NCBI GenBank assembly: GCA_963841645.1
Contig: CAWJDS010000017.1
Coordinates: forward strand, 215,609-279,608
Source: an uncultured Gammaproteobacteria bacterium
GTDB lineage: Bacteria > Pseudomonadota > Gammaproteobacteria > Steroidobacterales > Rariloculaceae
Length of the DNA stretch: 64,000 bases
Direction of reading: 5' to 3'
The notes below the pieces were generated by a model. It did not search any database and had not been told where the DNA came from. It saw nothing but the letters and a program-made list of their open reading frames with translations. Both the position numbers and the translations under genes were made by a program. Of the stretch, positions 1 through 55,205 are shown in pieces; the stretch's first letter is position 1; every line of letters starts with the position of its first letter.

Positions 1-223
1 CGTTCTTCGCGATGCGGCGCGAGCTGCCGACGCCGTTCGACCGCGCGCCGCAACTACCGCGTGACGGTCGGCGATCGAATCTGGACGCGCGCTGTATCTG
101 CCGCTCGCGGCGCTCGTGCAGCGCATGGCCGAGGCGGTCGCGTGGCTGCAGCAGGGACGGATCGCGACCTATCTGCTCTACAGCTTCGTCACGCTGCTCG
201 TGCTGCTGGCGCTGGTGCTATGA
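1..223 (+). pseudogene. NuoL/HyfB-like antiporter-type membrane subunit, C-terminal end only (runs off left edge; frame change near nt 60)
   Basis: Frame 2 nt 65-223 reads RALYLPLAALVQRMAEAVAWLQQGRIATYLLYSFVTLLVLLALVL-stop. The stop TGA 221-223 overlaps the next ATG (ATGA). It sits directly upstream of the NuoH-like gene, as in hyf/hyc operons. Assignment rests mostly on context. Confidence 0.4.
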
Positions 224-1183
224 GCGCGCTGTCACTGGCTCACGCAGATGCTCGAGGTGCTCGCCGCGATCGCGGCCGCGCCGCTGTTCGTCGGGCTGGG
301 TCGACTCAGTGCCGCGCGTGGCTGCAGAACAAGTCCGCGCCGAGCATCTGGCTGCCCTATCGCGGCATCCGCAAGCTGTTCCACAAGGACGCGGTGCTCG
401 CCGACGCAGCGCGTCGTCGCTGTTTCGCGTTCGCGCCGTACGTCGTGTTCGGCACCATGGTGTGCGCGGCGGCGATCATTCCGTCGATGGGCACGCGCCT
501 GCCGTTCTCGAGCGCGGCCGACGCGATCGCGCTCGTCGGCCTGTTCGCCACGGCGCGCGTGTTCGTGTCGCTCGCGGCGATGGACGTCGGCACGGCGTTC
601 GGAACGCTCGGCGCGCGCCGCGAAATGATGGTCGGCTTTCTCGCCGAGCCCGCGCTGCTGATGGTGATCTTCGTCGCCTCGCTGATCTGCCGCGAGCACC
701 GCGCTGCCGGCGATCTCCGAAGCGCTCGCGACGCAGCCGCTCGCGCTGTATCCGAGCCTCGCGTTCACCGCCGTCGCGTTCATGCTGGTGCTGCTGGCGG
801 AGAACGCGCGCATCCCGGTCGACAATCCGGCGACGCACCTCGAGCTCACGATGATCCACGAGGCCATGCTGCTCGAGTATTCGGCGCGGCATCTGGCGCT
901 GATGGAATGGGCCGCGGCGCTCAAGCTCTTCAACTACGCCTGCATCGGCTTCGCGCTGTTCGTCCCGTGGGGCGTTGCGACGGCGCGAGGCCAGACGCCG
1001 GCCGCGCTGCTCGCTGTCGTTGCCGATCCTGGCGGCTCAAGCTCGCGGCCGCCGGCGCCGGGCTCGCGCTGATCGAGACGGTGTCGGCCAAGCTGCGCGT
1101 GTTCCGCGCGCCGGAGTTCCTCGCGACCGCGTTCCTGTTCGCCGTGCTCGGCCTGCTCGTCCACCTGCTGCTGCGGAGCCTGA
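220..1183 (+). pseudogene. HyfC/HycD/NuoH-like membrane subunit (frameshifted as read)
   Basis: Family segments: WLQNKSAPSIWLPYRGIRKLFHKDAV and VGLFATARVFVSLAAMDVGTAFGTLGARREMMVGFLAEPALLMVIF (frame 1); AFMLVLLAENARIPVDNPATHLELTMIHEAMLLEYSARHLALMEW (frame 2); LIETVSAKLRVFRAPEFL (frame 1). Frames switch 1-2-1-2-1. The 3' end is approximate. Confidence 0.75.
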
Positions 1184-1185
1184 CC

Positions 1186-1859
1186 ATGAGCGAGCTGCCG
1201 TTCGACCTGCAGATCCTCAATACGCTCGCGGCGCTGCTGCTGCTGCTCGTCGTTCGCGATGCTGTCGCAGCGGCGCGTCGTCACGCTGGTGAATCTGCTC
1301 GCGTTCCAGGGCGCGCTGCTGTGCGTCGGCGACGCTGCTGCTCGCCTGGCGCACCGGGCAGACACCATCTGTATTTCTCGGCGGCGCTGACGCTCGCGCT
1401 GAAGGTCGATCTTCCTGCCCTGGCTGCTGCACCGGCTGATCCGGCGGCTCGGCGTCTACTGGGACAGCGAGCCGCTGATCAACATCGCCGGCACGATGCT
1501 GCTGGGGCTTGCTGATCGTGATCTTCGCGTTCGGCCTCGCGCAGCCGATCGCCGCGCTCGCGAGCACGGCGACGCGCAGCACGATCGGCATCGCGGTCGC
1601 CGTCGTCCTGCTCGCGTTCCTGACGATGATCACGCGCCGCAAGGCGATGTCGCAGGTGGTCGGCTTCCTGTCGATGGAGAACGGCCTGTTCTTCGGCGCG
1701 ATGAGCGCGACCTACGGCATGCCGATGATCGTCGAGCTCGGCGTCGCGCTCGACGTCCTGGTCGCGATGCTCGTGCTCGGCGTGTTCTTCTTCCAGATCC
1801 GCGAGCAGTTCGACAGCCTCGATCTGCATCACCTCGAGTCGCTGAAGGAGGAGCAGTAG
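1186..1859 (+). pseudogene. HyfE/NuoK-like membrane subunit (frameshifted as read)
   Basis: N-terminus MSELPFDLQILNTLAALLLLL. The middle reads FAMLSQRRVVTLVNLLAFQGALLCV and IFLPWLLHRLIRRLGVYWDSEPLINIAGTML in other frames. ORF 1509-1859 carries MSQVVGFLSMENGLFFGAMSATYGMPMIVELGVALDVL. About five frame changes. Confidence 0.7.
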
Positions 1860-1860
1860 C

Positions 1861-3327
1861 GTGGAGTTCCTGCGTGCTGCTCGGCGACTCCGCTCGTCGG
1901 CGCGCGTGTGCCTGGCGTTGTTCGGCGCGCGGCGCTGGGCGCCCGAGGCGAACGCGGCGTTCAGCCTCGCGACGTTGATCGCCGCGTGCGCGCTCACCGC
2001 GCGCGTCATCGGCGAGGGGAATCTGCAGCGCGGCGCACGAGCAGTTCTTCATCGATCCGTTCAACGTGTTCCTGGTCACGCTCACCGCGTTCGTCGGCTT
2101 CACCACCTCGCTGTTCTCGCGGCCCTACATGCGCATCGAGCTCGAGCACGGCCGCGTCAAGCCGCGCGCAGCTGCGCCTGTATCACAGCATGTACCAGCT
2201 GTTCATCGCCGCGATGCTGATCGCGCTCACGACCAACAACATGGGGCTTGCTGTGGGTCGCGATGGAGGCGGCGACGCTCTCGACCGTGCTGCTCGTGAC
2301 GCTCTATCGCACGCCCGCGAGCCTCGAGGCAGGCTGGAAGTACTTCATCCTCTGCGGCGTCGGCATCGCGCAGGCGCTGTTCGGCACGATCCTGCTGTAC
2401 TTCGCGGCCGAGAAGGTGCTCGGCGGCGAGGGCATGACCGCGCTGCTGTGGACGCACCTCAACGCCGTGAAGGGCAGCTCGAGCCCGCCGTGCTCGAGCC
2501 TCGCGTTCGTGTTCCTGCTGGTCGGCTACGGCACCAAGGTCGGCTTGGCGCCGCTGCACAACTGGCTGCCCGACGCGCACGCCGAGGGCCCGACGCCGAT
2601 CTCGGCGGTGCTCTCGGGGCTGCTGCTGAACGTCGCGATTTACGCGGTCGTGCGCTGCAAGGTGCTCGTCGAAGGCTCGCTGCACTCGCCGCTGCCGTCG
2701 ACGCATGCTGATGGGCTTCGGACTCGTGTCGGTGGTGCTGGCGGCGTTCTTCCTCTGGCGACAGCGCGACATCAAGCGCCTGTTCGCGTACTCGTCGATC
2801 GAGCACATGGGCATCATCACGTTCGCGTTCGGCATGGGCGGCCCGGTGGCGAACTTCGCCGCGCTGCTGCACATGACGGTGCACTCGCTGACGAAGTCGG
2901 CGATCTTCTTCGCGGTCGGCCACGCCGCGCAGAAGGCGGGCACGCAGGTCATGGACGACATCCGCGGGCTCATCACGCTGAGCCCCGACCGTCGGCTGGG
3001 GCCTGATGCTCGGCGCGCTCGCGATCCTCGGCCTGCCGCCGTTCGGCGTGTTCGCGAGCGAGTTCCTGATCCTCACCACGGCGATGCGCGAGCAGCCGTG
3101 GGCGACGCCGATCCTGCTGCTGGCGCTCGGCGTCGCGTTCGCCGCGATCTTCGGCCGCGTGCAGCCGATGGTGTTCGGCGAGACCACGCGCGAAGCGCCT
3201 GCCGCATCCGCCGGCGCTGCTGCCGGTGTTCGCGCACCTCGGGCTCGTGCTGATGCTCGGCTTGTTCATCCCGCCGTACCTCGCCGACTGGTTCCGGCTG
3301 GCGGCGCAACTGATCGCGGGGTCCTGA
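1861..3327 (+). pseudogene. HyfF/NuoN-NuoM-like proton-translocating membrane subunit (frameshifted as read)
   Basis: GTG at 1861 follows the previous stop by one nt. Motifs: FNVFLVTLTAFVGFTTSLFSRPYM, LRLYHSMYQLFIAAMLIALTTNNMGL, LWVAMEAATLSTVLLV, GYGTKVGLAPLHNWLPDAHAEGPTPISAVLSGLLLN, FAYSSIEHMGIITFAFG, HSLTKSAIFF, LGLPPFGVFASEF. These are spread over three frames with at least six changes. Stop TGA 3325-3327. Confidence 0.8.
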
Positions 3328-3331
3328 GGGA

Positions 3332-4891
3332 ATGCTGCGCGCATGGCTCGAGCAGATCCACCGACGCTGCCCGGCGCGCCGGGCGTGCGGCGCCTCGCGG
3401 CGACGCTCGGAGACTTGGCAGCCGATGCGCGCGCGACGTCGCGGCGACCGGCGGCCGGCTGCTGGCGCTGTGGGCCGATCGCGCGGCGAACGCCGCCGTG
3501 CATCGCCGCGTTCCTCTGCCGACGGCGCAGCGCTGCTGGTCGATCTCGCGCTGGAGCTGCCGGCGACGATGGCGTACCTATCCGGCCTCGCGGACATCTT
3601 TCCCGCGCGGCGCGCATGCAGCGCGCGGCCGCGGATCTCACGCGGCGTGCGCGCGCGCGATGCGGACCAGCGCCCGTGGCTGCGCCACGCGGCGTGGCCG
3701 CGCGACTACTACCGCTCGCGCCGCGCTCGCCGGCTACGCGGGTCGACGGCACGCCGCCGCCCGACGACTATCCGTTCGTGCGCGTCGCCGGCGACGGCGT
3801 GCACGAGATTCCGGTCGGGCCCGGTGCACGCCGGCATCATCGAGCCCGGGCATTTCCGCTTCTCGATCGTCGGCGAAAAGGTGCTCAAGCTCGAGGAGCG
3901 TCTCGGCTACGTGCACAAGGGCATCGAGCGGCGTTCTCCGAGCACGAAGCTCGCTCGAAGGGCCACCGGCTCGCGGCGCGCGTGTCGGGCGATTCGGCCG
4001 TCGCGTATCTCTTGGGCGTACTGCCAGGCGCTCGAGGGCATCGCGCGCTGCGACGGTGCCCGACGCGCGCGGCTCTGGCTGCGCGCGCTTGCGCTCGAGT
4101 GCGAGCGCATCGCGAACCATCTCGGCGATCTCGGCGCGCTCGGCAACGACGCGGGATTCGCCTTCGGCCTCGCGCAGTTCTCCCGATTCAAGGAGCATCT
4201 GGCTGCGCGCGCTCGACGTCGGCGCTCGGCCAGCGCTATCTCATCGATTTCGTCGTGCCGGGCGGCGTCGCGCGCGACGCGCGCGACGACCAGCTCGCGC
4301 GACTCGCTGACTGCGCGCGCGATGCTCGGCGCCGAGGCCGCGACGCTGCGCACGATCTACGACGAGCACGCCGGCGTGCGCGATCGATTCGCCGGCGCCG
4401 GCACCGTGACGCCGGACCTCGCCGCGCGGCTCGGACTCATCGGGCTCGCGGGCCGCGCGAGCGGGCAGGCTCTCGACCTGCGCGTCGATCTGCCGTGCGC
4501 GTCCGTACGCGGAGCTCGATCCGTGCGAAGAGCGGCGCGCGACGATGGCGACGTGGCCGCGCGCGTCGCGGTGCGCTTCGACGAGCTGACCGAGTCGCTG
4601 CGCCTCGTGCGCGAGATCGTCGAGCAATTGCCGCCCGGCGAGCTGTGGCGCCGACGTTGCCGCCGGCCGACGGAGGGCGCGCGCGGCATCGGCCTCATCG
4701 AAGGCTGGCGCGGACCAGTGCTCGTCGCGCTCGACCGCGGGCCCGGACGGCTACATCGGCGCTGCCATCCGCACGACCCTTCGTGGCAGAACTGGCCGGT
4801 GCTCGAGCACGCGATCATCGGCAACATCGTGCCGGATTTCCCGCTGATCAATAAGTCTTTCAACCTCTCCTACAGCGGGCACGATCTCTAG
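3332..4891 (+). pseudogene. NuoCD/HycE-like large subunit of a group-4-hydrogenase-related complex, NiFe cysteine ligands absent (frameshifted as read)
   Basis: ORF 3332-4891 stays open, but the homology alternates between frames 2 and 1. Motifs: GPVHAGIIEPGHFRFSIVGEKVLKLEERLGYVHKGIE, LAARVSGDSAVAY, ALECERIANHLGDLGALGNDAGFAFG, GIGLIEGWRGPV, DPSWQNWPVLEHAIIGNIVPDFPLINKSFNLSYSGHDL-stop. Confidence 0.8.
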
Positions 4892-4893
4892 CC

Positions 4894-5414
4894 ATGTGGA
4901 AGACGCTCCGCAAGATCTGCTCGCATCGGCATCGTCACCGAACCCCCGCCCGCGACCGACGAGGCGCTGCGTGTCGGCGAGCATCTGCAGGCCGAGATTC
5001 GCGCGCATGCTGGGTCGCGCGCTGTGCATTCGCCACGTCGATGCGGGTTCGTGCAACGGCTGCGAGCTCGAGATCCACGCGCTCGGCAATCCGTTCTACA
5101 ACATCGAAGGGTACTAGGCATCAGATTCGTCGCCAGCCCGCGGCACGCGGACTTGCTGCTCGTGACGGGGCCCGTCTCGCGCAACATGGAGCTCGCGCTC
5201 CGCCGCACGTACGACGCGACGCCGGATCCGAAGCTCGTCGTCGCGATCGGCGATTGCGGCTGCACCGGCGGGATATTCGGCGAGAGCTACGCGACCGCCG
5301 GTCGCGTCGCGAACGTGATTCCGGTGGACGTCGCCGTGCCAGGCTGCCCTCCGCATCCGAGACAGGATTCTCGCCGGTATTCTGACCGCGATCCGCGCGA
5401 CAAGCAGCGGTTAG
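4894..5414 (+). pseudogene. HycG/NuoB-like [4Fe-4S] small subunit (frameshifted as read)
   Basis: ATG 4894 lies 3 nt after the previous stop. LCIRHVDAGSCNGCELEIHALGNPFYNIEGY is in frame 3, followed by an in-frame TAG at 5115-5117. Then GIRFVASPRHADLLLVTGPVSRNMELALRRTYDATPDPKLVVAIGDCGCTGGIFGESY...VAVPGCPPHP is in frame 2. The tail ILAGILTAIRATSSG-stop (5412-5414) is in a third frame. Confidence 0.8.
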
Positions 5415-18006: not shown

Positions 18007-19683
18007 TCAGCCGCCGCTCTTCGTCGCCGCGCGCAGCATGTCGGCGATCTCCGGCGACACGGTGTTGTCGCGGCCGCCCGTCTGGCCGAGCGCCGCGTTG
18101 AGCGGCGTCTTGCCGAGCGCGTCCATGACGTCGGCCTTCGCGCCGTGCGCGAGTAAGTACTCGACCACGCGCGTCCAGCCGAACTTCACGGCGCCGTAGA
18201 GCGCCGTCTGGCCATTGCGCTCGGTCATCGTGCTGATTCGCGCGATGCGTGCCGTGCGGCTGTCGATGTCCGTGACGCGCGCGTTCACGTCGGCGCCCGC
18301 GGCGATCAGCACATCGAGCGTCGCGATGACGCGCGCTTGGACGTCGCCGTCGAGACCGACGCGCCGATCGCGGCCCGACACGCCGACGCCCGCCGCGCCC
18401 ATCAGCGGCGTCACGCCCATCACGTTAGGCAGGTCGACGAGCGCGCCGTGCGCGAGCAGCGCGCGCACCGCCTCGACGTCATGGCCGATCGCGGCGCGCA
18501 ATAGTGGAGTGACACCGGTCGTGAGCAAGTCGTCGACGAAGCGGCCGCTGTTGCCGCCGCGCCCGGGCCGATGCATGTTGAGCTGCGGGTTCGGGTTCAC
18601 GCCCGCGTCGAGCAGGCGCTTGATCACGTCGAGCGCCGTCGTCTCGCTCGTGGGCGGCGCGGCGCCGAGCCGAAAGCTGAAGCTGCTCATGTCGGCCGCG
18701 ATGTAGAGCGCAGTGCGTCCGTACCAATCGCTGACGTGCGGATTCGCGCCCGAGTCGAGCAAGAGGCGCGCGGTGTCGTAGTGGAAGTTGTCGATCGCGA
18801 TCATCAGCGGCGTGATGCCGTCGGGATTCGGGCGGTCGATGTCGGCGCCGGCCTCGAGGATCGAGCGCACGCAGCGCGAGCAGCCCGAGCGCGCGGCGTA
18901 GAGCAGCGGGGTGAGACCGCCGGTCGGACGGTACTGTCCTCGCGGCTCGGAAGTGATCTGCGCGTCCCAGTCATTCGCGAGCGCGCGCACGTTCACGTCC
19001 GCGCCTTTGGAGATCAAGAGCTGCGCGATCTCCGGTTGGTTAGCGTCTACGGCCCACATCAGCGCCGTCTGCCCGCGCCACGCTTCTTTCGCGTTGACGT
19101 TCGCGCCGTGTGCGACGAGCTCCTTCGCGACTTCGAGCGCGCCGGTGCGCGCCGCGAGCATCAGCGCGCTCTGGCCGTCCGCGTTCGGCGACTCGACGTC
19201 GGCGCCCGCGTCGAGCAGTTGCTTCGTTATCCCTAAGTCCGCGATCTTCACGGCCTCAGCGAGCGGGCTCGAGCCGTATTTGTTCGCGACGTTAGGCTTA
19301 GCGCCGTGCTTGAGCAGGGTCGCTACGAGGTCGGCGTCGACTTTGTAAACGGCCCAGATCAGCGGCGTCGTGCCGTCGCCCTGTGCCGCGTTCACGTCCG
19401 CGCCCGCGGCGATCTCTTTGAGCGCGGCGGCGCGGTCGCCCGATTGGATCAGCGCCGCAAGGGTGCCGGCCGCGTGCGCGGCGTGCGCACAGACGAGCGT
19501 GAAGCAGAGCGCGAGCGCCGCCCGACCGACGGGCCGTCTCGGCGTGATCGTTACGCCAGCGCTGGCCGCGCTGTTCGGCGTCGAGGATTGGAGCACGTTT
19601 CTGCCACCAGCCTTCAGACCGCGATTTTGCGGCCGGGCAACCCGGCTGTACAGCGCGGCTTGGCGGCTGGTTGCTTGCCGCAT
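18007..19683 (-). CDS. secreted ankyrin-repeat protein (roughly a dozen ANK repeats)
   Basis: Repeated G.TPL..A...G...+V..LL..GA+VN units throughout (DGTTPLIWAV, GQSALMLAARTG, GLTPLLYAARSG, GITPLMIAI, GVTPLLRAAIGH, GQTALYGAVKFG). Signal-like ALALCFTLVCAHAAHA. Start 19683 chosen to avoid overlap with the divergent gene; the ORF extends to 19767. Confidence 0.85.
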   Translation of the reverse strand: MRQATSRQAALYSRVARPQNRGLKAGGRNVLQSSTPNSAASAGVTITPRRPVGRAALALCFTLVCAHAAHAAGTLAALIQSGDRAAALKEIAAGADVNAAQGDGTTPLIWAVYKVDADLVATLLKHGAKPNVANKYGSSPLAEAVKIADLGITKQLLDAGADVESPNADGQSALMLAARTGALEVAKELVAHGANVNAKEAWRGQTALMWAVDANQPEIAQLLISKGADVNVRALANDWDAQITSEPRGQYRPTGGLTPLLYAARSGCSRCVRSILEAGADIDRPNPDGITPLMIAIDNFHYDTARLLLDSGANPHVSDWYGRTALYIAADMSSFSFRLGAAPPTSETTALDVIKRLLDAGVNPNPQLNMHRPGRGGNSGRFVDDLLTTGVTPLLRAAIGHDVEAVRALLAHGALVDLPNVMGVTPLMGAAGVGVSGRDRRVGLDGDVQARVIATLDVLIAAGADVNARVTDIDSRTARIARISTMTERNGQTALYGAVKFGWTRVVEYLLAHGAKADVMDALGKTPLNAALGQTGGRDNTVSPEIADMLRAATKSGG

Positions 19684-19727
19684 TTTCAGGATTCCTCTAG
19701 GCTGGCCCGACAACAACAATCCGCGGG

Positions 19728-20292
19728 GTGATCGCCGTGAAATCGTTCGGGACTCGAAGCGGGGCATTCTTGAGCGCGGTGGGTCTCGCCTGGGCCTTCG
19801 CGCTAGCTTCTTCCTCGGCGTGGTCCGCCGAGGAGCTCAAGGCAGAGAACGTGGTCGACCGTCTGCAGATCCAGGACCTGATCACGCGCTACTACAACAA
19901 CTTCGGCCGGGAGAATCCGGAGAACTTCTCCGACTTCTACGCCGACGACGCCGAGCTGATCCTCGGCGACCGGCACTTCAAGGGCAAGGACGGCATCATG
20001 CAGGCCTATGGCCGCGGCCCTCCGCAGGCCGATCAGCCGCCGCGACCACCGCGCCCGACGCGTTATTCGTTCATCGTGACCGTCAGCAATCCGTTGATCG
20101 TCGTCCACGGCAAGACGGCGACGGCTCAGCTCGTCTATACCGAGTACGTCATCGAGAAGCAGGGCGATCCGCTCAAGGTGACCACGCAAGGTAAGGAATA
20201 CAGCACTTTCGTGAAGGTGGACGGCCGCTGGCGTTACAAGACGCGCCAGATCAAGGGCGGCACGCGAGCTGCCGGAAGGCTGGAAAGAGTAG
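19728..20292 (+). pseudogene. secreted NTF2-like (SnoaL/DUF4440-type) protein (frameshift ~20265, close to the 3' end)
   Basis: Signal AFLSAVGLAWAFALASSSAWSA. VVDRLQIQDLITRYYNNFG...VDGRWRYKTRQIKGG is in frame 3. The final ELPEGWKE-stop (TAG 20290-20292) is in frame 1. Confidence 0.65.
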
Positions 20293-39053: not shown

Positions 39054-40403
39054 TCAGACGCCCGCGATCTCGCCGGTGCTGTCCGAGAAGCTCTTGAGCT
39101 CGAGCCCGGCCTTGTTGAGCACCGTGAGATGCAGGTTCGTGAGCGTCGTGTGCTCGGGCAGCTCGACGTGCTGACCGCCCTTGAGCGCGCCGCACGCGCC
39201 GCCGACGAGGATGTTCGGCAGCGGATAGTTGTTGTGCCGGTCGCTGTTGCTCATGTTCGAGCCGTACATGAACAAGGAGTGGTCGAGCAGCGAGCCGTCG
39301 CCGTCCGGAATCGCCGCGATCTTCGCGACGAAGTCGGCGAAGCGCTGCACGTGGTACGTCTGGATCTTCACGAGCTTCAGCAGGCGTTCCTTGTCGTTCG
39401 CGTGATGCGAGAGCGGATGGAACGCGTCGGAGATGCCGATGTGGTTGTACGTGCGGTTCGTGCCCTCGGCCACCATGATGTACGACGCGACGCGCGTGAG
39501 GTTCGCCTGATACGCGAGCGCGACGAGGTCGAACATCAGCTTCACTTGCTCGTCGAACTTGTCGAGCTCGCCGATCGGCGCTTCGGGCAGCGTGAGTCCC
39601 GTGAGGTCGCGCTGCTCCGCCTTCGCGACGCGGCGCTCGATCTCGCGCACCGTGTCGAGATACTCGTCGAGAACTCTGCGGTCGCTCGGACCGAGCGATT
39701 TCTGCAGCGCGGCCGTGCGGTCGGAGATCAGGTCGAGCAGGCTCTTCGTCTCGGCCGCGATCGCGTCGCGTTCCTCGGGCGTGTCGCCCTCGCCGAACAG
39801 CTGCGTGAACACCTTGCGCGGATTGAACTCCATCGGCAGCGGCGACGTCGCATTACGGAACGACAGCGTGGTGCTGTAGTAGCAGCCGGCGCCGGACGGG
39901 CACGCGGCGACCTGCGTCGTCGTCTCGGACGCGACTTCGAGCGAAGGCAGCGCGGTCTCTTGGCCGATCTTGCCCGCGATGATCTGGTCGATCGTCGTCG
40001 CCATGCTGGCGCCGGTCGCCGAGGGATCTGGCCGTACGCCGCTGAGCCAGGTCGCGGGCACGATCGCGTGCACCGAGTTCTGGTTCGCCTTGTTCTCGAG
40101 GTTCGCGAACGAGGTCACATAGCGCTTGTATTTCTCGAGCGGCGAGAGGATCGGGCTCAGCTTGAAATCGGCGCCGGCGCCGCTCGGGGACCAGTGGTCC
40201 ATCTCCTTGCCGAACGCCGTGTTCCAAAGAATCGCGCCGTGCGGAATATAGAAGAATCCGGCGCGCAGCTTCGGCGCCGCGGCGGTGCCCGCGAGCGCCG
40301 TCGCGGCGGGGATCATCGCGTCGAGCAGCGGCAGGCCGACGGCCACCCCCAGACCGCGCAGCATGGTCCTGCGAGACAGGTGTTTCTTCGTCAGGTACGT
40401 CAC
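39054..40403 (-). CDS. DUF1552 domain-containing protein (Tat-like signal)
   Basis: KHLSRRTMLRGLGVAVGLPLLDAMIPA, FFYIPHGAI, LPSLE, and overall DUF1552 pattern. Intact. The ORF extends to 40478; GTG 40403 with an upstream GGAG is preferred. Confidence 0.85.
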   Translation of the reverse strand: MTYLTKKHLSRRTMLRGLGVAVGLPLLDAMIPAATALAGTAAAPKLRAGFFYIPHGAILWNTAFGKEMDHWSPSGAGADFKLSPILSPLEKYKRYVTSFANLENKANQNSVHAIVPATWLSGVRPDPSATGASMATTIDQIIAGKIGQETALPSLEVASETTTQVAACPSGAGCYYSTTLSFRNATSPLPMEFNPRKVFTQLFGEGDTPEERDAIAAETKSLLDLISDRTAALQKSLGPSDRRVLDEYLDTVREIERRVAKAEQRDLTGLTLPEAPIGELDKFDEQVKLMFDLVALAYQANLTRVASYIMVAEGTNRTYNHIGISDAFHPLSHHANDKERLLKLVKIQTYHVQRFADFVAKIAAIPDGDGSLLDHSLFMYGSNMSNSDRHNNYPLPNILVGGACGALKGGQHVELPEHTTLTNLHLTVLNKAGLELKSFSDSTGEIAGV

Positions 40404-40516
40404 GCTCGACTCCGGGTCGGCGGCAATCTGCAGTCTCTGGCTTCTATATATAGCAGAACCGGGGCCGCTCCGGTCCAACCGAGGTCTTGATCTGGGGCCA
40501 TGCGCGCCACGGCTGG

Positions 40517-40916: not shown

Positions 40917-43417
40917 CTACTTCGCCTCGACGCGCGCGACGGTCTGCGCGCCGTCGTGCGCATCGCGCGGTAGCGCCTGCTCGCGGAACGCGTCGCTCCG
41001 CACGATGCCGTGCACGAGCTCCGCGAACCGGTAGTCGCGCTTCGCGGCGTCCTGCACGATCGCGCGCACCTGCGTCATGTCGTGGTACGCGAGCTTGCGC
41101 CCGATCGCGTACATCATGAGCTTCTCGGTCACGGCTTGTGCGAACTGATCGGGCCGCGCGAGCAGCGCGTTGCGTAGCGCCACCGGTCCGTTCACGGGCG
41201 CGCCCGTCACGAGCGTCGAGCCCGCGTCGATCGGCTCGTGCGCCTCGCGATCGATCGTGCGCCACTGCCCGGTGACGGTGAAGTTCTCGAGCGCGAGGCC
41301 GTATGGGTCGATCACGCTATGGCAGCCGCTGCAGACGGCGTCGGTGCGATGCCGCTCGAGCCGCGCACGCAGCGTCTTCGGTTTCTCGCCGGCTTTCTGC
41401 GTGAGGTCGACGACGACGTTCGGCGGCGGCGGCGTCGGCGGCGTGCCCATGAGCTTGTCGAGCACCCACGCGCCGCGCAGAACCGGCGACGTGCGGTCGC
41501 CGTACGACGTGCGCAGCAGCACCGCGCCCTTGCCGAGCAGCCCGAAGCGCGCCGGATCGTCGAGCTTCACGCGCCGGAACTGCGGGCCGTGCACCCCCGT
41601 GACTCCGTAGTGGCGCGCGAGCCGCTCGTCCAAGAACGTCTGGTCCGACGTCAGCAGCTCGCGGACGTCGTGGTTGTCGAGCAGCACGCTCTTCAGGAAC
41701 AGCTCGATCTCGGTTGCGAAGTCCGTGCGCAGCGCGTCGCTGAACTCGGGGAAGATCTGCGCGTCGGGCACGACCGCCGTGAGGTCGTCGACGTTGAGCC
41801 ACTTGAGCGCGAAGCTCGTGACGAGCGTCTCCGCGCGCGGGTCGGCGAGCATCCGGTCGACTTGCGCGTCGAGCGCGCGCGGCTCGTGCAGCGTGCCGCG
41901 CTCGGCGAGCGCGAGCAGCTCGTCGTCGGGTCCCTGGTTCCAGAGGAAGAAGGAGAGGCGTGATGCGAGCGCGAGATCGTCGAGCGCGAACGTGGCGGGG
42001 GTCGCCGAGGCGGGCACGCCGCTCGCGCCGGGTTGCGCGCCGCCGGACCCGCCTGACCTTCACCGAGAGCGCGCCGGCCGGCGGCTCGATCGCGCGATAG
42101 AGGAAGTCGGGGCTCGCGAGGATCGCGGTGACGAGCTGCTCGACGCCGGCGTCGAAGCTGTCCGCGACTTGCGGCCCGCGTCGTAGAACGGCATCAGCCG
42201 CGCGACGTCGTCCGCGCCGAGGGGCCGGCGGAACGCGTGCCGCGCGAGCGTCGCGGCGATCTTCTCCGCGCACGCGCGCTCCTCGCTCGCGGCGGCAGGC
42301 GTGCAGACGAAGATCTTGTCGCGGCTCGCGGTATGCGACACGCCGGTCGGGGAGTACGGGCCCTTGAGCTCGACGCCGCCGATCAGGCGCGGCACGCGCA
42401 TCTGGCCCTGGTAGCTGAAGCCGCCGTACGGAGTGAAGCCGAAGATCGCTTCGTCCGTCGCGGCGTCGCCCGCGCTCGACGAACGTGACGACGATCTCGT
42501 GCACGCCGGCGGTCACGTGCAGCGGGATCGCGGCGAAGCGCTTCATGATCTCGGCGCGCGCGGGCGCGCCGCCGTGATCGACGAGCGCGAGGTCCTCGCG
42601 GCCGCCGAGCTTCGCGCGAAACACCTCGTCGCGGTCGAGCAGCACGACGACCGTCTGTTCCGTCTCGAGCGAGCGCGGGTAGAGGCCGACGTCGAGGTCG
42701 GTGATCGTGAGCCGGTACTCGCCGTCCGCCGGAAACGGATGCGTGAAGCGATTGCCGCCACGCGTGCCGGGCGGCAGCCCGTCGGCGTAGCCGTCCTGAT
42801 CGCCGCTCGGCGGCGCGAAATAGACGCTCGCGAGCTTCGGCGTCGGCTCGCCGATCGCGAGCCGCGCGACCTTGCGCGCGACGCCGAGGTACTGCTCGAG
42901 GAATGCGGGCGAGACGCTGAGCGCCGCGGCGATGTTGTCGAATCCGTCGACCTCGATCTCGTTCGGTAGATATTGCTTCGCGTCGATCTCGACTCCGAGC
43001 AGGTCCTTCACGGTCGCGGCGTACTCGGTTCGGTTCAAACGCTGCACGGACGTGTAACCCGCGCGCGGCTCATGCGCGCCGCGATCGATCGAATGCTCCG
43101 CCCAGCGCACGAACTCCTCGATGTGCGGCTGATCGGGTCGCGGGTTGCCGGGCGGCGGCATCAACCCTCCGCGCAGCTTGCGGATCGCGGCCTCGAAGAC
43201 TCTGGGGTTTGGCGGCGACTGCATCCGCGCCGACGCCTTCGAACACGACTCCGCCGGCCGCTTCGGCCTCGTTGTGACAGTCGGTGCAGTAGCTCTTGAG
43301 CGCCTGCCACTGCACCGCACCGCGCTGCGCGTCGAGTCGAGAGTGCAGCACGGCGAGCGCGACCGCGCCGACGGCCGAGGCCGCGAGAGCTCCAACGACG
43401 ATGCCGATGCGCTTCAT
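40917..43417 (-). pseudogene. DUF1592/DUF1595/DUF1588/DUF1585-type haem-binding (CxxCH) protein (about 4-5 frameshifts as read)
   Basis: N-terminus MKRIGIVVGALAASAV...WQALKSYCTDCHN, RKLRGGLMPPPGNP, RLNRTEYAATVKDLLG. The intact C-terminal 366 aa (ORF 40917-42017) contains LASRLSFFLWNQGPDDELL, RTSPVLRGAWVLDKLMG, AVCSGCHSVIDPYGLALENF. Confidence 0.8.
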
Positions 43418-49065: not shown

Positions 49066-50502
49066 ATGTTGCCGAAGCCGTTCAGTTGGGAGAGAGCCGA
49101 CGCGCGTGCGGGCCGTTTCGACGGCCGGTTCATCGTCGGCGTGCTCACGACGGGCATTTACTGCCTGCCGTCCTGCAGCGCACGCCAGCCTAGGCCGGAG
49201 AACGTGCGCCTGTTCAAGACGGAAGCCGAGGCGCAGGCTGCGGGTCTTAGGCCCTGCAAGCGCTGCCGGCCGGATCTCTACTACCGCGGCGAGGATTCCG
49301 ACGCGGCGCTGTTCGCTGCGCTCGCGCAACGCGTGCGCGCGGAGCCCGCAGCGTGCGCCGACGCGGGCGCGCTCGCGCGTGCGTGCGGCGTCAGTCTCAC
49401 GAAGCTCGGCGATCTCCTGCGCACGCACGCGCATCTCACGCCGGCAGCCTGGCTCAAGCGCGAGCAAGTGCGCGCGGCCGCCCGTGCGCTGCTCGACACC
49501 GACCGGCGCGTCGTCGACGTCGGCCACACGGCTGGCTTCGAGAGCGAGGCCGCATTCCATCGTCAGTTCCTGCGCCTCACGCGGATGACTCCGGGCGCGT
49601 ACCGAGGACTGCGAGGCGCGTCCGTGTTCATGCTCCAGCTCCCGGCGGGTTACCGCGCGGCGGACGTGCTCGCGTATCACGGACGCGATCCCGAGAGCCC
49701 CGCAGAGCACGTCCGCGGCATGACGCTCGTGAAGGCGCTCGCGTTTGGCGGCGACGCGGTGGTGCTCGAGGTCGAGCTCGAGCCGCACGTCGCGTGGTGC
49801 CGGGTCCATGCCGATGCGCGAGTCATCGAGCGCCATATCGCGGGCGTGCATGCAGTCGCGCTCCGGCTGCTCGGCCTCACGCTCGACGTCGCGGGGTTCG
49901 AGACGCGGGCGGCGCGTGACCCGCGCATGGCGGCGCTGACCGCGCGCCGGCGCGGGCTGCGGCTGCCGCTCACGGCGAGTGGTTTCGACGCGCTGTGCTG
50001 GGCGATCATCGGCCAGCAGATCAACGTGACGTTCGCGAGCGCGTTGCGCCGCGAGCTGCTCGATCTTGCGGGCACCGAAGTCGGCGGCATGCGCGCGCAC
50101 CCGATCGCGGAGCGTGTTGCCCAGATTCCGGTCGACGAGCTGCGGCGCCGGCGCTTCTCGCGCACAAAGGCCGAATATCTCGTCGGCGCTGCGCAAGCCG
50201 TCGCGTCGGGGCGGCTCGAGCCCGATGCTCTTGGCGACGGCTCCGCCGTCATGGCCGAGCGCGACCTCACACGCCTGCGCGGCATCGGCACTTGGACCGC
50301 GCGCTACGTGCTGATGCGCGGCGCCGGCTTCGCGGACTGCGCGCCGGTCGGCGACGTCGCGCTCGCCGCGGCTTTGCAAAGGCTCACGGCTGCGGGCGAG
50401 CGTCCGGGGCCGGAGCAGGTCGAGGAGCTGATGCGGCCGTTCGCGCCGCACCGGAGCCTCGCGACATTCCATCTTTGGGCTAGCTTGAGGGACGCAGCAT
50501 GA
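49066..50502 (+). CDS. Ada-like regulatory domain (Zn-Cys methylphosphotriester acceptor + AraC HTH) fused to AlkA-type DNA-3-methyladenine glycosylase II
   Basis: FIVGVLTTGIYCLPSCSARQPRPENVRLF...LRPCKRCRP, AraC-type HTGFESEAAFHRQFLRLTRMTPGAY, and the HhH-GPD part LTRLRGIGTWTARYVLMRG. Intact. Confidence 0.85.
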   Translation: MLPKPFSWERADARAGRFDGRFIVGVLTTGIYCLPSCSARQPRPENVRLFKTEAEAQAAGLRPCKRCRPDLYYRGEDSDAALFAALAQRVRAEPAACADAGALARACGVSLTKLGDLLRTHAHLTPAAWLKREQVRAAARALLDTDRRVVDVGHTAGFESEAAFHRQFLRLTRMTPGAYRGLRGASVFMLQLPAGYRAADVLAYHGRDPESPAEHVRGMTLVKALAFGGDAVVLEVELEPHVAWCRVHADARVIERHIAGVHAVALRLLGLTLDVAGFETRAARDPRMAALTARRRGLRLPLTASGFDALCWAIIGQQINVTFASALRRELLDLAGTEVGGMRAHPIAERVAQIPVDELRRRRFSRTKAEYLVGAAQAVASGRLEPDALGDGSAVMAERDLTRLRGIGTWTARYVLMRGAGFADCAPVGDVALAAALQRLTAAGERPGPEQVEELMRPFAPHRSLATFHLWASLRDAA

Positions 50503-51029
50503 GCTACACGACGAACCATGAGCCGCACCGCTGGGGCACGATCGAAACGGATTTCGCGACGTTCGCCGCGTGGGTCGACGAGCGCGGCCGTCTCGTGCGC
50601 TTCAATCTGAGCGCGAAGGGCGCCGCGAAAGTGGACGCTACCGCGGTGCACGACGAGCGCGCGATCGCGCACGTGCGCAAGCAGGTCGAGGAATACTGCG
50701 CGGGCAAGCGTACGGAGTTCGACCTCGAGCTCGCGCCGACGGGCACGGAGTTCCAACGCGCTGTCTGGAACGCGCTACTCGAGATCCCGTACGGCGAGAC
50801 CCGCAGCTATGGCGAGGTCGCGCGAGCGATCGGTCAGCCGAAGGCTGCGCGCGGCGTCGGCTCCGCGAACCACGCGAATCCGATCGGGCTCATCGTGCCG
50901 TGCCACCGCGTGATCGGTGCGGACGGCAGCCTCACGGGCTACGGCGGCGGGTTGCCGCTCAAGCAGGCGCTGCTCGCGCACGAGGCCGCGCACCGGCCCG
51001 ACACTCAGCGGAGCGGGGCGCTGTTCTGA
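50499..51029 (+). CDS. ogt: methylated-DNA--protein-cysteine methyltransferase
   Basis: TEFQRAVWNALLEIPYGETRSYGEVARAIGQPKAARGVGSANHANPIGLIVPCHRVIGADGSLTGYGGG with the PCHRV active site. The ATG overlaps the Ada/AlkA stop. Confidence 0.9.
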   Translation: MSYTTNHEPHRWGTIETDFATFAAWVDERGRLVRFNLSAKGAAKVDATAVHDERAIAHVRKQVEEYCAGKRTEFDLELAPTGTEFQRAVWNALLEIPYGETRSYGEVARAIGQPKAARGVGSANHANPIGLIVPCHRVIGADGSLTGYGGGLPLKQALLAHEAAHRPDTQRSGALF

Positions 51030-51044
51030 AACCGAGGTGAGGCG

Positions 51045-51977
51045 ATGATCGCGATCGGACGACTCTGCGTCGGACTGGCGCTCGCGGCGGGTTGCGTCGG
51101 CACGGTGCGCGCGCAGCCGGCACCCCAAAGCGACAGCGAGTTCCACATCACCGCCTGGGCGCCGAAGGCGGTCGATCTGCCACCGTACGTGGGCGTGAAT
51201 CGCGCCACATTGGAAGCTCGCCGACCTTCTCGTGGCTCACCGCAACGATAAGGACTGGAGCCAAACGCTCGTCGAGGATCGGCATCTCGTCGCGAGCTAC
51301 GTCTCGATGGCCGCGGGCGGCCGGACGCCGCGACGCTTCCACCCCGACACGCCGATCTTCTGGGTCGTCGAGCGCGGGCAGATCCGGTTCACGATCGAAG
51401 GTCAGCCGCCATTCGTCGCGTCGAAAGGATTTCTAGTGCAAGTGCCGTATCGCACGCCGTACGAGCTCGAAACCGTGGGCGACGAGCCGTCGCTGCGGCT
51501 CGAGGTCGCGGTGGCGGGTGCGAGCACGTTGTATCCGCTCGACGTGAAGCCGGTGCCGGTGCCCGGCAAGCAGTTCGTCGAGGTCACGATGCCGGGGCGA
51601 GGGAAATACGACGAGATCAATCGACCGTATCTCGACTTTCCAACCGACGTGGTTCGCGGCGCGCGCCGTCCGGGCTTCTTCGTGCGCGACGATCACGTGA
51701 TGGCCGTGCTGATCCGCGGCAAGGGCGCTCCGCCGCCGCCCGAAAGCGATCGCGGCCACATGCATCTCGACTACGGCGAGCTCTGGCTGATGCTCGAAGG
51801 CAAGACGGATTACCTGATCGAGGGCGTGCCGCTGTTCACGGCCGACGAAGGCGACGTGGTCTACGCGCCCGCCGGCCGCTTCCATCGCCCGACGTTCGGC
51901 GGCAGCGGCATGTCGACGCGGCTTGGGATCAACGGATTCTACGCGGGCGTGCACGTCGAGCCCGGCACCGAGCGTAA
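51045..51977 (+). pseudogene. exported bicupin-like protein (frameshift ~51205; 3' end uncertain)
   Basis: Signal MIAIGRLCVGLALAAGCVGTVRA is in frame 3, and the body is in frame 1 (FHPDTPIFWVVERGQIRFTIEG; HMHLDYGELWLMLEGKTDYLIEGVPLFTADEGDVVYAPAGRFHRP). Frame 1 never stops before running antisense into yebC. The end is set at TAA 51975-51977 in another frame and is a guess. Confidence 0.5.
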
Positions 51978-52041
51978 CGCTGGCGAGCGTCGCGCGCGCG
52001 TCGCTCGGCGCGATGCGCCGATCGCGCGCGACGCGCGAGCG

Positions 52042-52764
52042 TCAGAGCAGCGAGTGGAAGACGTTCTGCACGTCGTCGTCCTGCTCGAGCTTGTCGACCA
52101 GCTTGAGCACCTCGGTCGCCTGCGCCTCCGGCAGCTCGACCGGCGTCGTGCGACGTACTCGGACTCGGCCGAGATCGGCGTGATGCCGCGCTCCTCGAGC
52201 GCCTTCTGCAGCTGGCCGAAGTCGGCGAACGCGCAGCGCACGACGAGCTGCGGCTCGCCCTTCTCGCCGGTGCTCTCGCCCATCTCCTCGAGGCCGTGGT
52301 CGATCAGGTCGAGCTCGAGCTCGTCCGACGTCGATGCCGTCGGGATTCAGGCGGAACACGCCCATCTTGCGTGAACAGGAACGCGACGCTGCCGGTCGCG
52401 CCCAGGTTGCCGCCGCCCTTGTTGAAGATCGCGCGCACGTTCGCGACCGTGCGCGTCGGGTTGTCGGTCGCGCTCTCGACGATCACCGCGACGCCGTGCG
52501 GCGCGTAGCCTTCGTAGAGGATCTGCTCGTAGTTCGTCGCGTCCTTGCCGGACGCGCGCTTGATCGCCGCCTCGACCTTGTCCTTCGGCATGTTGACCGC
52601 GCGCGCGTTCTGGATGACGCGGCGCAGCGCGGGATTGGAGTCGGGATCGGGCCGCCGGCCTTGACCGCGATCGTGATCTCCTTGCCGATGCGCGCGAACG
52701 CCTTGGACATCCGGTCCCAGCGCGCGAACATCGTGTGCTTGCGGACTTCGAAGATGCGTCCCAT
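52042..52764 (-). pseudogene. yebC: YebC/PmpR-family transcriptional regulator (about four frameshifts as read)
   Basis: [147 protein letters not shown]-stop. These are spread over all three frames. Confidence 0.8.
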
Positions 52765-52830
52765 AAGGCGCGAATTCTCGCACGCCGCGGGCGGCCGCGT
52801 CCCACCTCGCAAACCGTTTCGCGTGGCTCG

Positions 52831-55205
52831 CTAGAAAAGGTCGGCCTGGCGGCGTCGCCGATCACCTGCTCGAAGTCGAGGCCGAGCGCGTCGAGCACCG
52901 GCTCCGCGACCGGCCGCACCTGCTTGTCGACGTAGTGCTCGCGGTCGAGCGGGTGCTGCAGGTTGTCGAGCGGCTCCGGCCCCGCCGTGGTCATCACGTA
53001 GCTGATCGAGGCGGCCCGGCGGCTGCGTCGACTTGCGCGCCGCGGCAACGTGCGGCGGCGTGCGTCGCGGTGTAGTCCTCGGCCGCCTTGCGCAGGTTCT
53101 TGCGATAGACGAGCGCGTCGTCGAGCTCGCCGCGCGCGCACGCGCCGCACGACGTCCGCGAGGTACGCGTCGACGGGCTGATCGGTGAACAGCCGCCGAT
53201 AGAGCTCGCGCTGCACCTGCTTCGCGAGCGCCGTCCAGTCGCGGCGCACGACTTCCATGCCGACGAATTCGACGTCGTGCTCGGCCGTCGCGCGCCGTGA
53301 ACGAGGCCGGCGTAGCGCTTGCTCGCGCCGCGCGTGCTGTGCCGCGCGCTGCGGCAGGAAGAGCTTGCAGGTACAGCTTCTCGAACTCGAGCTCGAGCCG
53401 GCTCTCGCACGCGCCAGCGCTCCGCGATGTACGTCGCGAGCTCGGCGTTCAGCTGCGACGCGGCCAGCGCTGCCTCTGCCCGTGCGGCGCGTCCGCGATC
53501 GTCGTGCCGGAGCGCACGAACAGGCTGTCGGTGTCGCCGTAGAGCACGTCGTAAGCCCGCGCTCTCGAACCAGCCTTCGACCACAGCAGCATCTCGCGGC
53601 CGATGCCCGGTGATCGCGTTCGCGAGCGCCGGGTTGTAGAAGCGGCAGGCCGGCGTGCCGAGCACGCCGTAGAACGAGTTCATCAGGATCTTGATGGCGT
53701 GCGACGCCACGTCGTCGCCGCGCTTGCTTCGCCGCCTCGCGCCGCGGGAACAGCTCGTCGAGCATGCGCGGCAGGATCGCCGGCTCGCGCCGGAACGCGC
53801 CGCCCGGCGTCTCGATCAGATCGTCGTCCGGGCGCCGGGCTCGGCGACGTAGCGCGAGCGGATCGATGTTGAACGTGCGGATGAGGCTCGGATACAGGCT
53901 CTTGAAGTCGAACACCCACACGTTCGCGTGCAGCCCGGTGATCGGCTCGAGCACGTGACCGCCCTGCTGCGCCGCGTACACGCGCGAGTCGTCGCAGCGC
54001 ACGGTCGGCGCGACGATGCGGCGCTGCTCGAGCTCGCGCGAGATACAGGAAGTCGAACGACGCGATGCTCGCCGCGACGCGATCGGGCGTCATGCCGGTC
54101 AAGCTGGCTGCGCGCGAACGCGAGCGCGCACGAGATTGAGCTTCTCGACGATCTGATACGCGAGCCGCGCGTCGGTGCGCGCGTAGAGCGCGAACGCCGG
54201 CAGGTCGTGCTCGATAGTTGTGCAGGATCTCGCCGATGCGATCGCGCACGTCGCCGTCGAGCGCCTTGCCTTCGCCCAGCACTTCGCGCGCGACCGCGTC
54301 GAGCGAGTAGTCGTCCATGCGCACGAAGGCGCCGCGCAGCAGGTCGATGCCGTCGAGCACGACGCGGCCCGGGATCGCTGGCCTGGCCGCTGCCGAAGTA
54401 GCCTTCGGCCTTGCGCAGCCGCATGCGCGCCGCGTCGCGGCCGAGCTCGAACGGATGCCGCAGCGCGCGCCGCGATCCGCTGCAGCACCGTGAGATCGAA
54501 GTCGATCGTGTTCCAGCCGGTGAGCACGTCGGGATCGAGCGTCGCGCACGCGCTCGCAGAACGCGTCGAGCGCTGCGCGCTCGTCGGCGCAGCGCATCGG
54601 CCTTCTCCGGCATCGCGCGCGCGCCGCCGTCGACGATGAGCACCTCGTCGACGCCCGGCGCGTACAGCGAGATCGCGAGCAGCCGCTCGCCTTCGGGATC
54701 GGTCTCGATGTCGAACGACAGCACGCGCGGCTCGACCTCGACCTGCGCCGGCCGCAGCATCGGGATTGTCGAAGATCGAGCGAGACGCGCTCGGCGCTCG
54801 TGCGCGGCTCGCCTTCGATCTCGCAGCCGCCCTTGATGCCGCGCTCGATGAGGTAGCGCGATCGCGAAGCGCACGTCGGCCTCGAACGTGTCGATGCCGT
54901 GCGGCGTGCAGCCGATCGCGCAGCGCCGGCACGTCGGCCGGCACCTCGACCTCGATGCGCACGACGGGCGCGCCGTCGAACGTGCGCTCGTCCGATGGGC
55001 TGCGAGCCGGCGGCGCCGAGCGCGCGCGCGCGTTGCGCATCGGCTGCGCGGATGTAGAAGTGCGGACGCTGCCGATCGTCGCGCACGAGGAACGTGCCGC
55101 CGTCCTCGAGCCGACCGTAGAGGTGCACGACGGGACGCGCTCGCCACTCTCGCCGGTCTCGACGCGGTAGCTCGCCTGCAGAATGAAGCCGCGGTGCGCG
55201 TTCAC
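52831..55205 (-). pseudogene. polB: family B DNA polymerase (Pol II type), at least ten frameshifts as read
   Basis: N-terminus (GTG 55205) NAHRGFILQASYRVETG...VHLYGRLEDGGTFLV. ExoI SFDIETDP (~54698-54720). TGWNTIDFDLTVL. Motif A VFDFKSLYPS (~53889-53915). Motif B KILMNSFYG (~53666-53695). Motif C LYGDTDS (~53524-53544). C-terminus RQADLF-stop (52831-52833). Confidence 0.85.

Follow-up and report, generated by a model that had tools for sequence, protein, structure and literature searches.

A hyqBCEFGI-type operon encoding a hydrogenase-like large subunit without NiFe-ligand cysteines in an uncultured gammaproteobacterium

The window analysed here, a stretch of 64,000 nucleotides from an uncultured gammaproteobacterium of the Rariloculaceae (contig CAWJDS010000017.1, positions 215,609 to 279,608), carries in its first 5414 nucleotides, on the + strand and with 69-70% G+C, pieces of six genes spread over several reading frames. 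The open reading frames (ORFs) of the window gave Pfam matches to PF00146 (NADHdh), PF00361 (Proton_antipo_M, two matches), PF00346 (Complex1_49kDa) and PF01058 (Oxidored_q6). Positions 1-5414 cover, except for most of its first gene, a six-gene operon of the hyqBCEFGI type, alias hyfBCEFGI or Ehr (energy-converting hydrogenase-related), and the large subunit encoded there has no cysteine at any of the four positions that correspond to the NiFe ligands of hydrogenases.

Gapped tblastn merged the frames, and in its place a frameshift-aware dynamic-programming alignment was used together with ungapped tblastn. The guides were the six proteins of L011, a locus in a metagenome-assembled genome (MAG) built from short reads, in which the operon is intact with all six genes. 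The L011 proteins comprise a HyfB/NuoL-like subunit of ~667 aa, a NuoH-like subunit of 316 aa, a HyfE-like subunit of 227 aa, a HyfF/NuoN-like subunit of ~486 aa, the large subunit of 512 aa and the small subunit of 173 aa. The alignment recovered six genes in that order in the window (Table 1), in agreement with the Hyf/Hyc-type six-subunit module proposed in a preliminary description of this DNA. The gene order given there (NuoL-, NuoH-, NuoK-, NuoN-, NuoCD- and NuoB-like) was borne out by Pfam, tblastn and the frameshift-aware alignment, except that the third gene is HyfE-like and its designation as NuoK-like was not shown.

The HyqB/HyfB fragment at 3-220 aligned with its L011 homologue over residues 629-700 of the latter, and the window holds the last ~72 residues of this protein. 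The full-length HyqB homologue matched NCBIfam NF005086, 'hydrogenase 4 subunit B', with 860 bits (cut-off 667), and the HyqF homologue matched NF005045, 'hydrogenase 4 subunit F', with 853 bits (cut-off 543); only these two antiporter-like subunits scored above an NCBIfam cut-off, the large and small subunits remaining below every curated one. After frame correction HyqC/HyfC of the window showed 85% identity to its L011 homologue, and it was also detected with E. coli HycD (tblastn, 1.4e-22). The HyqE/HyfE-like gene was detected with E. coli HyfE (tblastn, 7e-12) and matched NF008556 below its cut-off (E=9.5e-27), the protein giving no Pfam match and no PDB sequence match. Residues E135, K225, H340, K344 and E399 of HyqF (Glu-TM5, Lys-TM7, His/Lys and Glu-TM12) do not vary among 47 relatives, and the window has all of them; the corresponding channel motifs were recognised by eye in the intact HyqB-like sequence of L011. 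In the large subunit of the window the N-terminal ~45 residues are uncertain; its NuoC-like N-terminal domain lies below Pfam detection and aligns to the N-terminal region of HycE from residue 72. The label given to the large subunit by PGAP is "NADH-quinone oxidoreductase subunit C", and in Burkholderia stagnalis (L084) the six genes are annotated as hyfB, NuoH, hypothetical, hydrogenase 4 subunit F, 'NADH-quinone oxidoreductase subunit C' and 'formate hydrogenlyase'.

Table 1. Genes of the operon and ligand-equivalent segments of the large subunit, in window coordinates
Feature	Position	Strand	Remarks
HyqB/HyfB (NuoL-like, antiporter-like), 3' end; gene cut by window edge	1..223	+	2 frame changes
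HyqC/HyfC (NuoH/HycD-like) membrane subunit	~221..1182, ends approximate	+	PF00146; 7 frame changes
HyqE/HyfE-like small membrane subunit	1186..1859	+	83% identity to L011 homologue; 5 frame changes
HyqF/HyfF (NuoM/N-like, antiporter-like) subunit	1861..3327	+	PF00361; 11 frame changes
HyqG-like large subunit (NuoC-NuoD/HycE-like fusion)	3332..4891	+	PF00346; ~512 aa frame-corrected; 12 frame changes
L1-equivalent segment LAARVSGDSAVAY	3970..4008	+ (frame 1)	HycE C241, C244 replaced by Ser, Ser; invariant Asp between
L2-equivalent segment PLINKSFNLSYSGHDL	4841..4888, then TAG 4889-4891	+	HycE C531, C534 replaced by Ser, Gly
HyqI-like small subunit (NuoB/HycG/MbhJ-like), four [4Fe-4S] cysteines	4894..5414	+	PF01058; 4 frame changes

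The active site of the large subunit was compared with those of solved relatives. The best match of the intact large-subunit homologue among solved structures was E. coli HycE (7z0s_E, phmmer, E=7.5e-54), followed by MbhL and Nqo4. The phmmer alignment placed RVSGDSAVAF opposite RVCGICGFAH and NKSFNLSYSG opposite IGSLDPCYSC of HycE, and HycE C241/C244/C531/C534 stand opposite S/S/S/G in L011. The same four residues were read in the reconstructed protein of the window, which was aligned by MAFFT with E. coli HycE and HyfG, B. stagnalis and R. johnstonii. Both alignments thus upheld the Ser, Ser, Ser and Gly that had been claimed at the four positions, and no cysteine emerged there on frame correction. 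In 62 clean relatives the ligand positions were Ser in 56/60, Ser in 57/60, Ser in 55/62 and Gly in 62/62, and the Asp of L1 was invariant. The possibility that frame breaks masked hidden cysteines was dismissed: the intact short-read homologue and the 62 clean relatives carry the same residues, and the Cys-less result is therefore not a frameshift artefact. Neither the L1 (RxCGxCxxxH) nor the L2 (DPCxxCxxH/R) cysteine pair of group 4 [NiFe] hydrogenases is present, and HydDB excludes Ehr-type proteins by this motif criterion. The encoded complex is therefore most likely not a canonical [NiFe] hydrogenase, as judged from these residues.

Other parts of the site are retained. The hydrogenase-type proton-transfer motif HxxxxEPGHFR is present, the RCH motif at 470-472 has a cysteine conserved both in this clade and in alphaproteobacterial HyqG, dozens of charged pocket residues are invariant across wide divergence, and the substituted pocket itself (RVSGDS... 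and the end NKSFNLSYSGHDL) is almost invariant among relatives. The pocket of the family is thus under strong selection and not that of a dead hydrogenase. The large subunit ends where mature HycE ends after cleavage by HycI, so the C-terminal extension is indeed absent as proposed; as a diagnostic feature this does not stand, since 12 Cys-complete relatives end at the same position. The complex-I quinone ligands are absent as well, Nqo4 Y87 aligning to Gly and H38 to Ile, and the best NuoD NCBIfam score of the large subunit was 181 bits, below the cut-off of 360.

A query with the last 183 residues of the large subunit, a well-framed stretch, gave thousands of relatives. A scan of GTDB species genomes provided at least 80 related loci, mostly from soil MAGs of Steroidobacteraceae, Burkholderiales and Casimicrobiaceae with 64-77% identity; the closest relatives among the loci listed are MAGs of uncultured Steroidobacteraceae-like bacteria and Burkholderiales (72-77% over the large-subunit C-terminus). 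One of them, L006, showed 84% nucleotide identity to the operon of the window, synteny not reaching beyond the operon. When the intact large subunit was compared by tblastn with annotated plasmids and chromids, identities of 65% were found for Cupriavidus necator N-1, 64% for Variovorax, 58% for Burkholderia stagnalis, 50% for Azospirillum brasilense, 48% for Rhizobium johnstonii and R. ruizarguesonis, and ~31% for HycE of the E. coli type. A HMMER search with a large-subunit fragment of 321 aa against 1.84 billion cluster representatives gave 513 proteins at E<=1e-30, some of them Cys-complete. The 98 best-matching 50%-identity representatives with coverage of the four ligand positions comprised 12 CCCC sequences and 86 without the full Cys set, most of the latter having x-[SAC]-G-D-[STNE] together with [SA]-x-x-G-x-D-L at the C-terminus. 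On these alignments the cysteines were not lost recently, their absence being ancient, conserved and widespread. Six representatives (P0131, P0133, P0205, P0209, P0213 and P0268) keep only the first ligand cysteine (C-S-A-G, motif CGDS). This subgroup may stand midway between the Cys-complete and the Cys-less large subunits.

The small subunit shows the motifs GSCNGCE, GDCGC and PGCPP in the window. It matched MbhJ (6cfw_J, 1e-36) and HycG (7z0s_G, 1.5e-34) with the cluster cysteines aligned, and across 60-62 relatives C53, C56, C120 and C150 (L011 numbering) never vary; the earlier statement that the NuoB-like subunit keeps its [4Fe-4S] cysteines was thereby sustained. No homologue of HycB, HycF, HyfA, HyfH, HypA, HypB, HycI or HycH was found by tblastn in the 64 kb window (all E>0.3), and no formate dehydrogenase or maturation gene was seen among the 20 largest other ORFs of the window, which agrees with the absence of a HycF/NuoI-type ferredoxin, formate dehydrogenase and hyp genes noted previously. 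Clustering of the flanking ORFs of 53 loci revealed no conserved electron-input gene beside the operon, and hyp, endopeptidase, ferredoxin-type subunit and formate dehydrogenase genes are likewise not conserved next to it in the related loci. The only conserved neighbour is a divergent ribbon-helix-helix (RHH) gene (PF19839, RHH_9/CopG), located 50-150 nt upstream of hyqB in 38/52 loci and in B. stagnalis, which is probably the regulator of the operon; apart from it the flanks of the 53 loci showed only lineage-specific synteny (MetRS, ApbC, Dcd, UvrA). The RHH_9 gene lies at 3634-3831 (- strand) in L011 and at 2365-2562 in L084, and its position falls outside the window.

The preliminary description had cautioned that the operon is riddled with frame changes. 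Over the 5.4 kb 41 were counted, of which 34 are +1, that is, one extra base, and there are no in-frame stops. A second patch with the same insertion-type pattern was observed in an unrelated polB-like (DNA polymerase II) gene at 52893-54898 (- strand), which contains 18 frame changes, 12 of them +1, no in-frame stops, and intact SLYPS, KxxxNSxYG and YGDTDS motifs. Two ORFs at the edge of this patch, a cupin-like one at 51232-52374 (+), the C-terminal part of which is low-complexity nonsense, and a YebC-like fragment at 52304-52783 (-), are probably frame-shifted. The estimate of frame-change density by GC3-phase segmentation, which needs no reference sequence, was too noisy to give firm values and served as a rough guide only.

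The frame changes were compared over the 82 related loci listed. No frame change was present in 62/82, and three or more were present in 9/28 long-read and 0/54 short-read loci; the two classes were told apart by record names (those with 'contig_', plus two complete chromosomes, being counted as long-read), the MFD assemblies with 'contig_N' names being ones which we take to be Nanopore/Flye assemblies. The counts in long-read loci included 46 (L002), 41 (L006), 25 (L019) and 11 (L009), with the same +1 bias. Over 590 columns that are invariant in clean relatives and covered in the window no mismatch was found, the leave-one-out value for clean members being 0.4-0.5%. Because 41 real frameshifts would bring many substitutions, the frame changes are read as consensus errors. 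Nor are they inherited lesions, since their positions mostly differ from those of L006, the closest relative among the loci listed (8/39 in common, ~4.7 expected by chance). Homopolymer slips are possible for only 9/33 of the +1 events. In 27/33 (62% expected) the extra base differs from the preceding third-codon base while the codons are synonymous, as in GT[C][G]ATC and TA[T][C]TC, at sites that vary among relatives. We infer that reads of co-occurring strains were collapsed and that both alleles were written into the consensus. Positions of extra bases recur to some extent in independent long-read MAGs, 12/39 being in common with L002. Collapsed strain variation in a long-read metagenome consensus could mimic pseudogenes elsewhere in such data.

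The operon corresponds to described systems at several levels. The Ehr-like interpretation given previously is supported by the group-4-hydrogenase-like large subunit without NiFe ligands and by the antiporter-like membrane subunits; on motifs and gene set the term can be narrowed, as the nearest systems so far described are HyqBCEFGI of Azorhizobium caulinodans and hyfBCEFGI of Cupriavidus. HyqBCEFGI was described as an 'endo-hydrogenase' (Ng 2009, PMC2650096; Sprecher 2012, PMC3357923), with orthologues in Rhizobium (including R. leguminosarum), Bradyrhizobium, Azospirillum (including A. brasilense) and Rhodopseudomonas. HyqG of A. caulinodans is a NuoC::NuoD fusion of 504 aa without either CxxC motif, HyqI has four conserved cysteines, and C258, C491 and C497 were reported to be fully conserved in alphaproteobacterial HyqG (PMC3357923). 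The window-type operon, as seen intact in L011 and B. stagnalis, likewise has six genes in the order B-C-E-F-G-I without HyfA, HyfD or HyfH, a fused large subunit of ~504-512 aa without CxxC pairs and a small subunit with four conserved Cys. The large-subunit identity between L011 and the Rhizobium/Azospirillum proteins is 48-50% (R. johnstonii HyqG 48%), and the motifs RxSGDS[AT]VA[YF] and NKSFNxSYSGHDL at the C-terminus are the same in R. johnstonii HyqG and in the window. Because R. johnstonii HyqG has these substituted motifs nearly letter for letter, the operon is to be regarded not as new but as the beta/gammaproteobacterial branch of the HyqBCEFGI/hyfBCEFGI/Ehr group.

The branch differs from Hyq in three respects. 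R. johnstonii C259, C491 and C497 are replaced by G267, I499 and L505 in L011, the window and B. stagnalis, I499 and L505 being invariant in the 62 relatives; relatives of the window have a divergent RHH_9 regulator in place of the sigma-54/NifA-controlled hyqR; and the hosts are soil gamma- and betaproteobacteria not known as diazotrophs. The absence of the three HyqG cysteines, the near-invariant substituted pocket and the divergent RHH neighbour were not found described in the literature. In Cupriavidus metallidurans CH34 and C. necator H16 the hyfBCEFGI clusters (Rmet_4666-4671 and H16_A2196-A2201, respectively; PMC2864759) belong, with that of B. stagnalis, to the same clade and have the same gene set and upstream CopG/RHH gene, their large subunits being 65% (C. 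necator N-1) and 58% (B. stagnalis) identical to that of L011; they differ in host lineage only. Cupriavidus necator H16, C. metallidurans CH34 and B. stagnalis are tractable hosts of the clade. A fitness paper on C. necator was set aside, as it deals with hox/hyp and not with the hyf operon.

Ehr complexes, e.g. those of Geobacter sulfurreducens (GSU0739-45) and Nitrospira (PMC7894505, PMC10284858, PMC12342949), share by definition (PMC6349859, PMC10284858, PMC12342949) the group-4-hydrogenase-like character without NiFe ligands, and the NuoL-like, HyfE-like, large and small subunits; unlike the window-type operon, beside which no such gene is conserved, some Ehr loci adjoin fdhA/nuoEF-like genes (PMC6349859). 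The E. coli formate hydrogenlyases Hyc (FHL-1, 7z0s) and Hyf (FHL-2) provide with HycE the nearest solved structure and share HxxxxEPGHFR and the hydrogenase-type CxxC of the small subunit, and hyfB, C, E, F, G and I of Hyf all have counterparts in the operon. In contrast to them the window encodes no NiFe cysteines, no HycB/HycF/HyfA/HyfH ferredoxin, no HyfD and no C-terminal extension, and its 64 kb hold no HycI, Hyp or formate dehydrogenase. With complex I there are in common the homologous Q-/P-module architecture (NuoB, CD, H, L, M, N), the position of an N2-type cluster and antiporter-like subunits with Glu-TM5, Lys-TM7 and Glu-TM12, whereas Nqo4 Tyr87/His38 are replaced by Gly/Ile, NuoA, I, J and EFG are absent, and the small subunit has CxxC instead of the tandem Cys pair of complex I.

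The architecture is thus a minimal complex-I/hydrogenase-4-like one, the peripheral arm consisting of the large and small subunits and the membrane arm of the NuoH-like, the HyfE-like and two antiporter-like subunits. With a probability of about 0.8 the operon, its genes being intact, would encode a Hyq/Ehr-type redox-coupled, ion-translocating membrane module and not a canonical hydrogenase. A redox or protonation event at the old NiFe/quinone site, at the interface of the large, small and NuoH-like subunits, would drive, or be driven by, ion translocation, electrons being fed through the single FeS cluster and ions being carried by the antiporter-like subunits. Since a NuoI/HycF cap is missing, a soluble low-potential carrier could dock directly on the small subunit; the second substrate would be quinone or protons. 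The partners are probably such a carrier together with membrane quinone or protons, because there is neither a NuoI/HycF-type relay nor a conserved neighbouring donor gene. Some points weigh against this proposal. Quinone reduction is unsupported by conserved residues, as the complex-I quinone ligands are absent. Sequence patterns speak only indirectly for the artefact status of the frame changes, and collapsed strain variation is a presumed explanation for the coincidence of the dense error patch with the operon both in the window and in L006. Moreover, the genetics of A. caulinodans, the sole functional data for the family, tie hyq to the recycling and evolution of H2 (PMC2650096, PMC3357923), and for this reason favour hydrogenase-like chemistry over a ferredoxin:quinone activity.

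The number of frame changes within 5.4 kb, and their dense occurrence on the operon here and in L006, would also fit a decaying pseudogene cluster in which all 41 are real in the DNA of the organism. This is highly improbable: none of the 590 invariant residues is altered and no in-frame stop occurs, the same +1-biased pattern is present in the unrelated polB-like gene and is confined to long-read MAGs among the loci listed, the positions are not inherited between relatives, and many of the 'insertions' resemble two synonymous alleles in tandem. On these grounds the pseudogene reading was rejected. Consensus errors of long-read assembly, and not gene decay, are the most likely source of the frame changes, the operon genes are presumably intact in the organism, and the encoded proteins are, by their substitution pattern, without sign of relaxed selection; the +1 patches of this window should accordingly be taken as an assembly artefact and not as pseudogene evidence. 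A redox-independent, Mrp-like cation/proton transporter, in which the peripheral subunits and the FeS cluster are structural or regulatory, would accommodate the two antiporter-like subunits with intact channel residues, the single cluster and the lack of an electron-input module, and is nevertheless very unlikely, as it would be difficult to account for four invariant FeS cysteines, and for dozens of charged pocket residues that are likewise unchanged, if the site carried out no chemistry. NuoB/NuoD homologues are moreover not known from Mrp antiporters.

In another reading, also unlikely, the complex would genuinely convert H2 at a non-canonical Cys-free, or nickel-free, active site, as proposed for Hyq of A. 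caulinodans as an H2:quinone oxidoreductase. Deletion of hyq in that organism slows diazotrophic growth, and ~80% of microaerobic H2 evolution is hyq-dependent, also in a nifK background (PMC2650096; PMC3357923). The near-invariant substituted pocket and the retained HxxxxEPGHFR motif are compatible with such an enzyme. Membranes of Burkholderia plantarii, for which no hydrogenase is annotated, weakly oxidise H2 (PMC13626601), which would bear on this reading if the species has the operon. On the other side, all four NiFe ligands are missing, hyp and endopeptidase genes are neither in the window nor conserved beside the operon, and the expression of Nitrospira Ehr is unresponsive to H2 (PMC12342949). 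In this clade Gly, Ile and Leu occupy the positions of the cysteines reported as conserved in alphaproteobacterial HyqG (about 258/259, 491 and 497), and because the clade is without even these alternative cysteines, which could have rescued the hydrogenase hypothesis, true hydrogenase chemistry is judged unlikely.

It is a speculative thought, with the odds well against it, that the Cys-free pocket (R214-x-S-G-D218-S, the RCH at 470-472 and the buried C-terminus S-Y-S-G-H-D-L-COO-) constitutes a new catalytic or ligand site, which might bind a non-NiFe metal handling H2/H+ or another small molecule. Since it is also without the three alternative cysteines known from alphaproteobacterial HyqG, the beta/gammaproteobacterial clade would be a natural test case for the 'Hyq hydrogenase' activity. 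Ehr/Hyq complexes are widespread and are placed between the group 4 hydrogenases and complex I.

Some other features of the window were observed. A protein of 586 aa encoded at 18007-19767 (- strand) consists largely of ankyrin repeats, which are uncommon in free-living proteobacteria. A DUF1552 (HXXSHH) protein at 39054-40478 (- strand) adjoins a DUF1592/DUF1588/DUF1585/DUF1587 (PSD/PSCyt) protein at 40917-43395 (- strand), a pair typical of Planctomycetes-like secreted proteins; the latter appears to be split over two overlapping frames, probably by a frame error. The region 49066-51029 (+) encodes a fusion of Ada-type regulator and AlkA-like glycosylase (Ada_Zn_binding, HTH_18 and HhH-GPD) followed by an ORF of 176 aa with a PCHRVIG motif, methylguanine methyltransferase-like by eye, and the two look like an intact adaptive-response pair.

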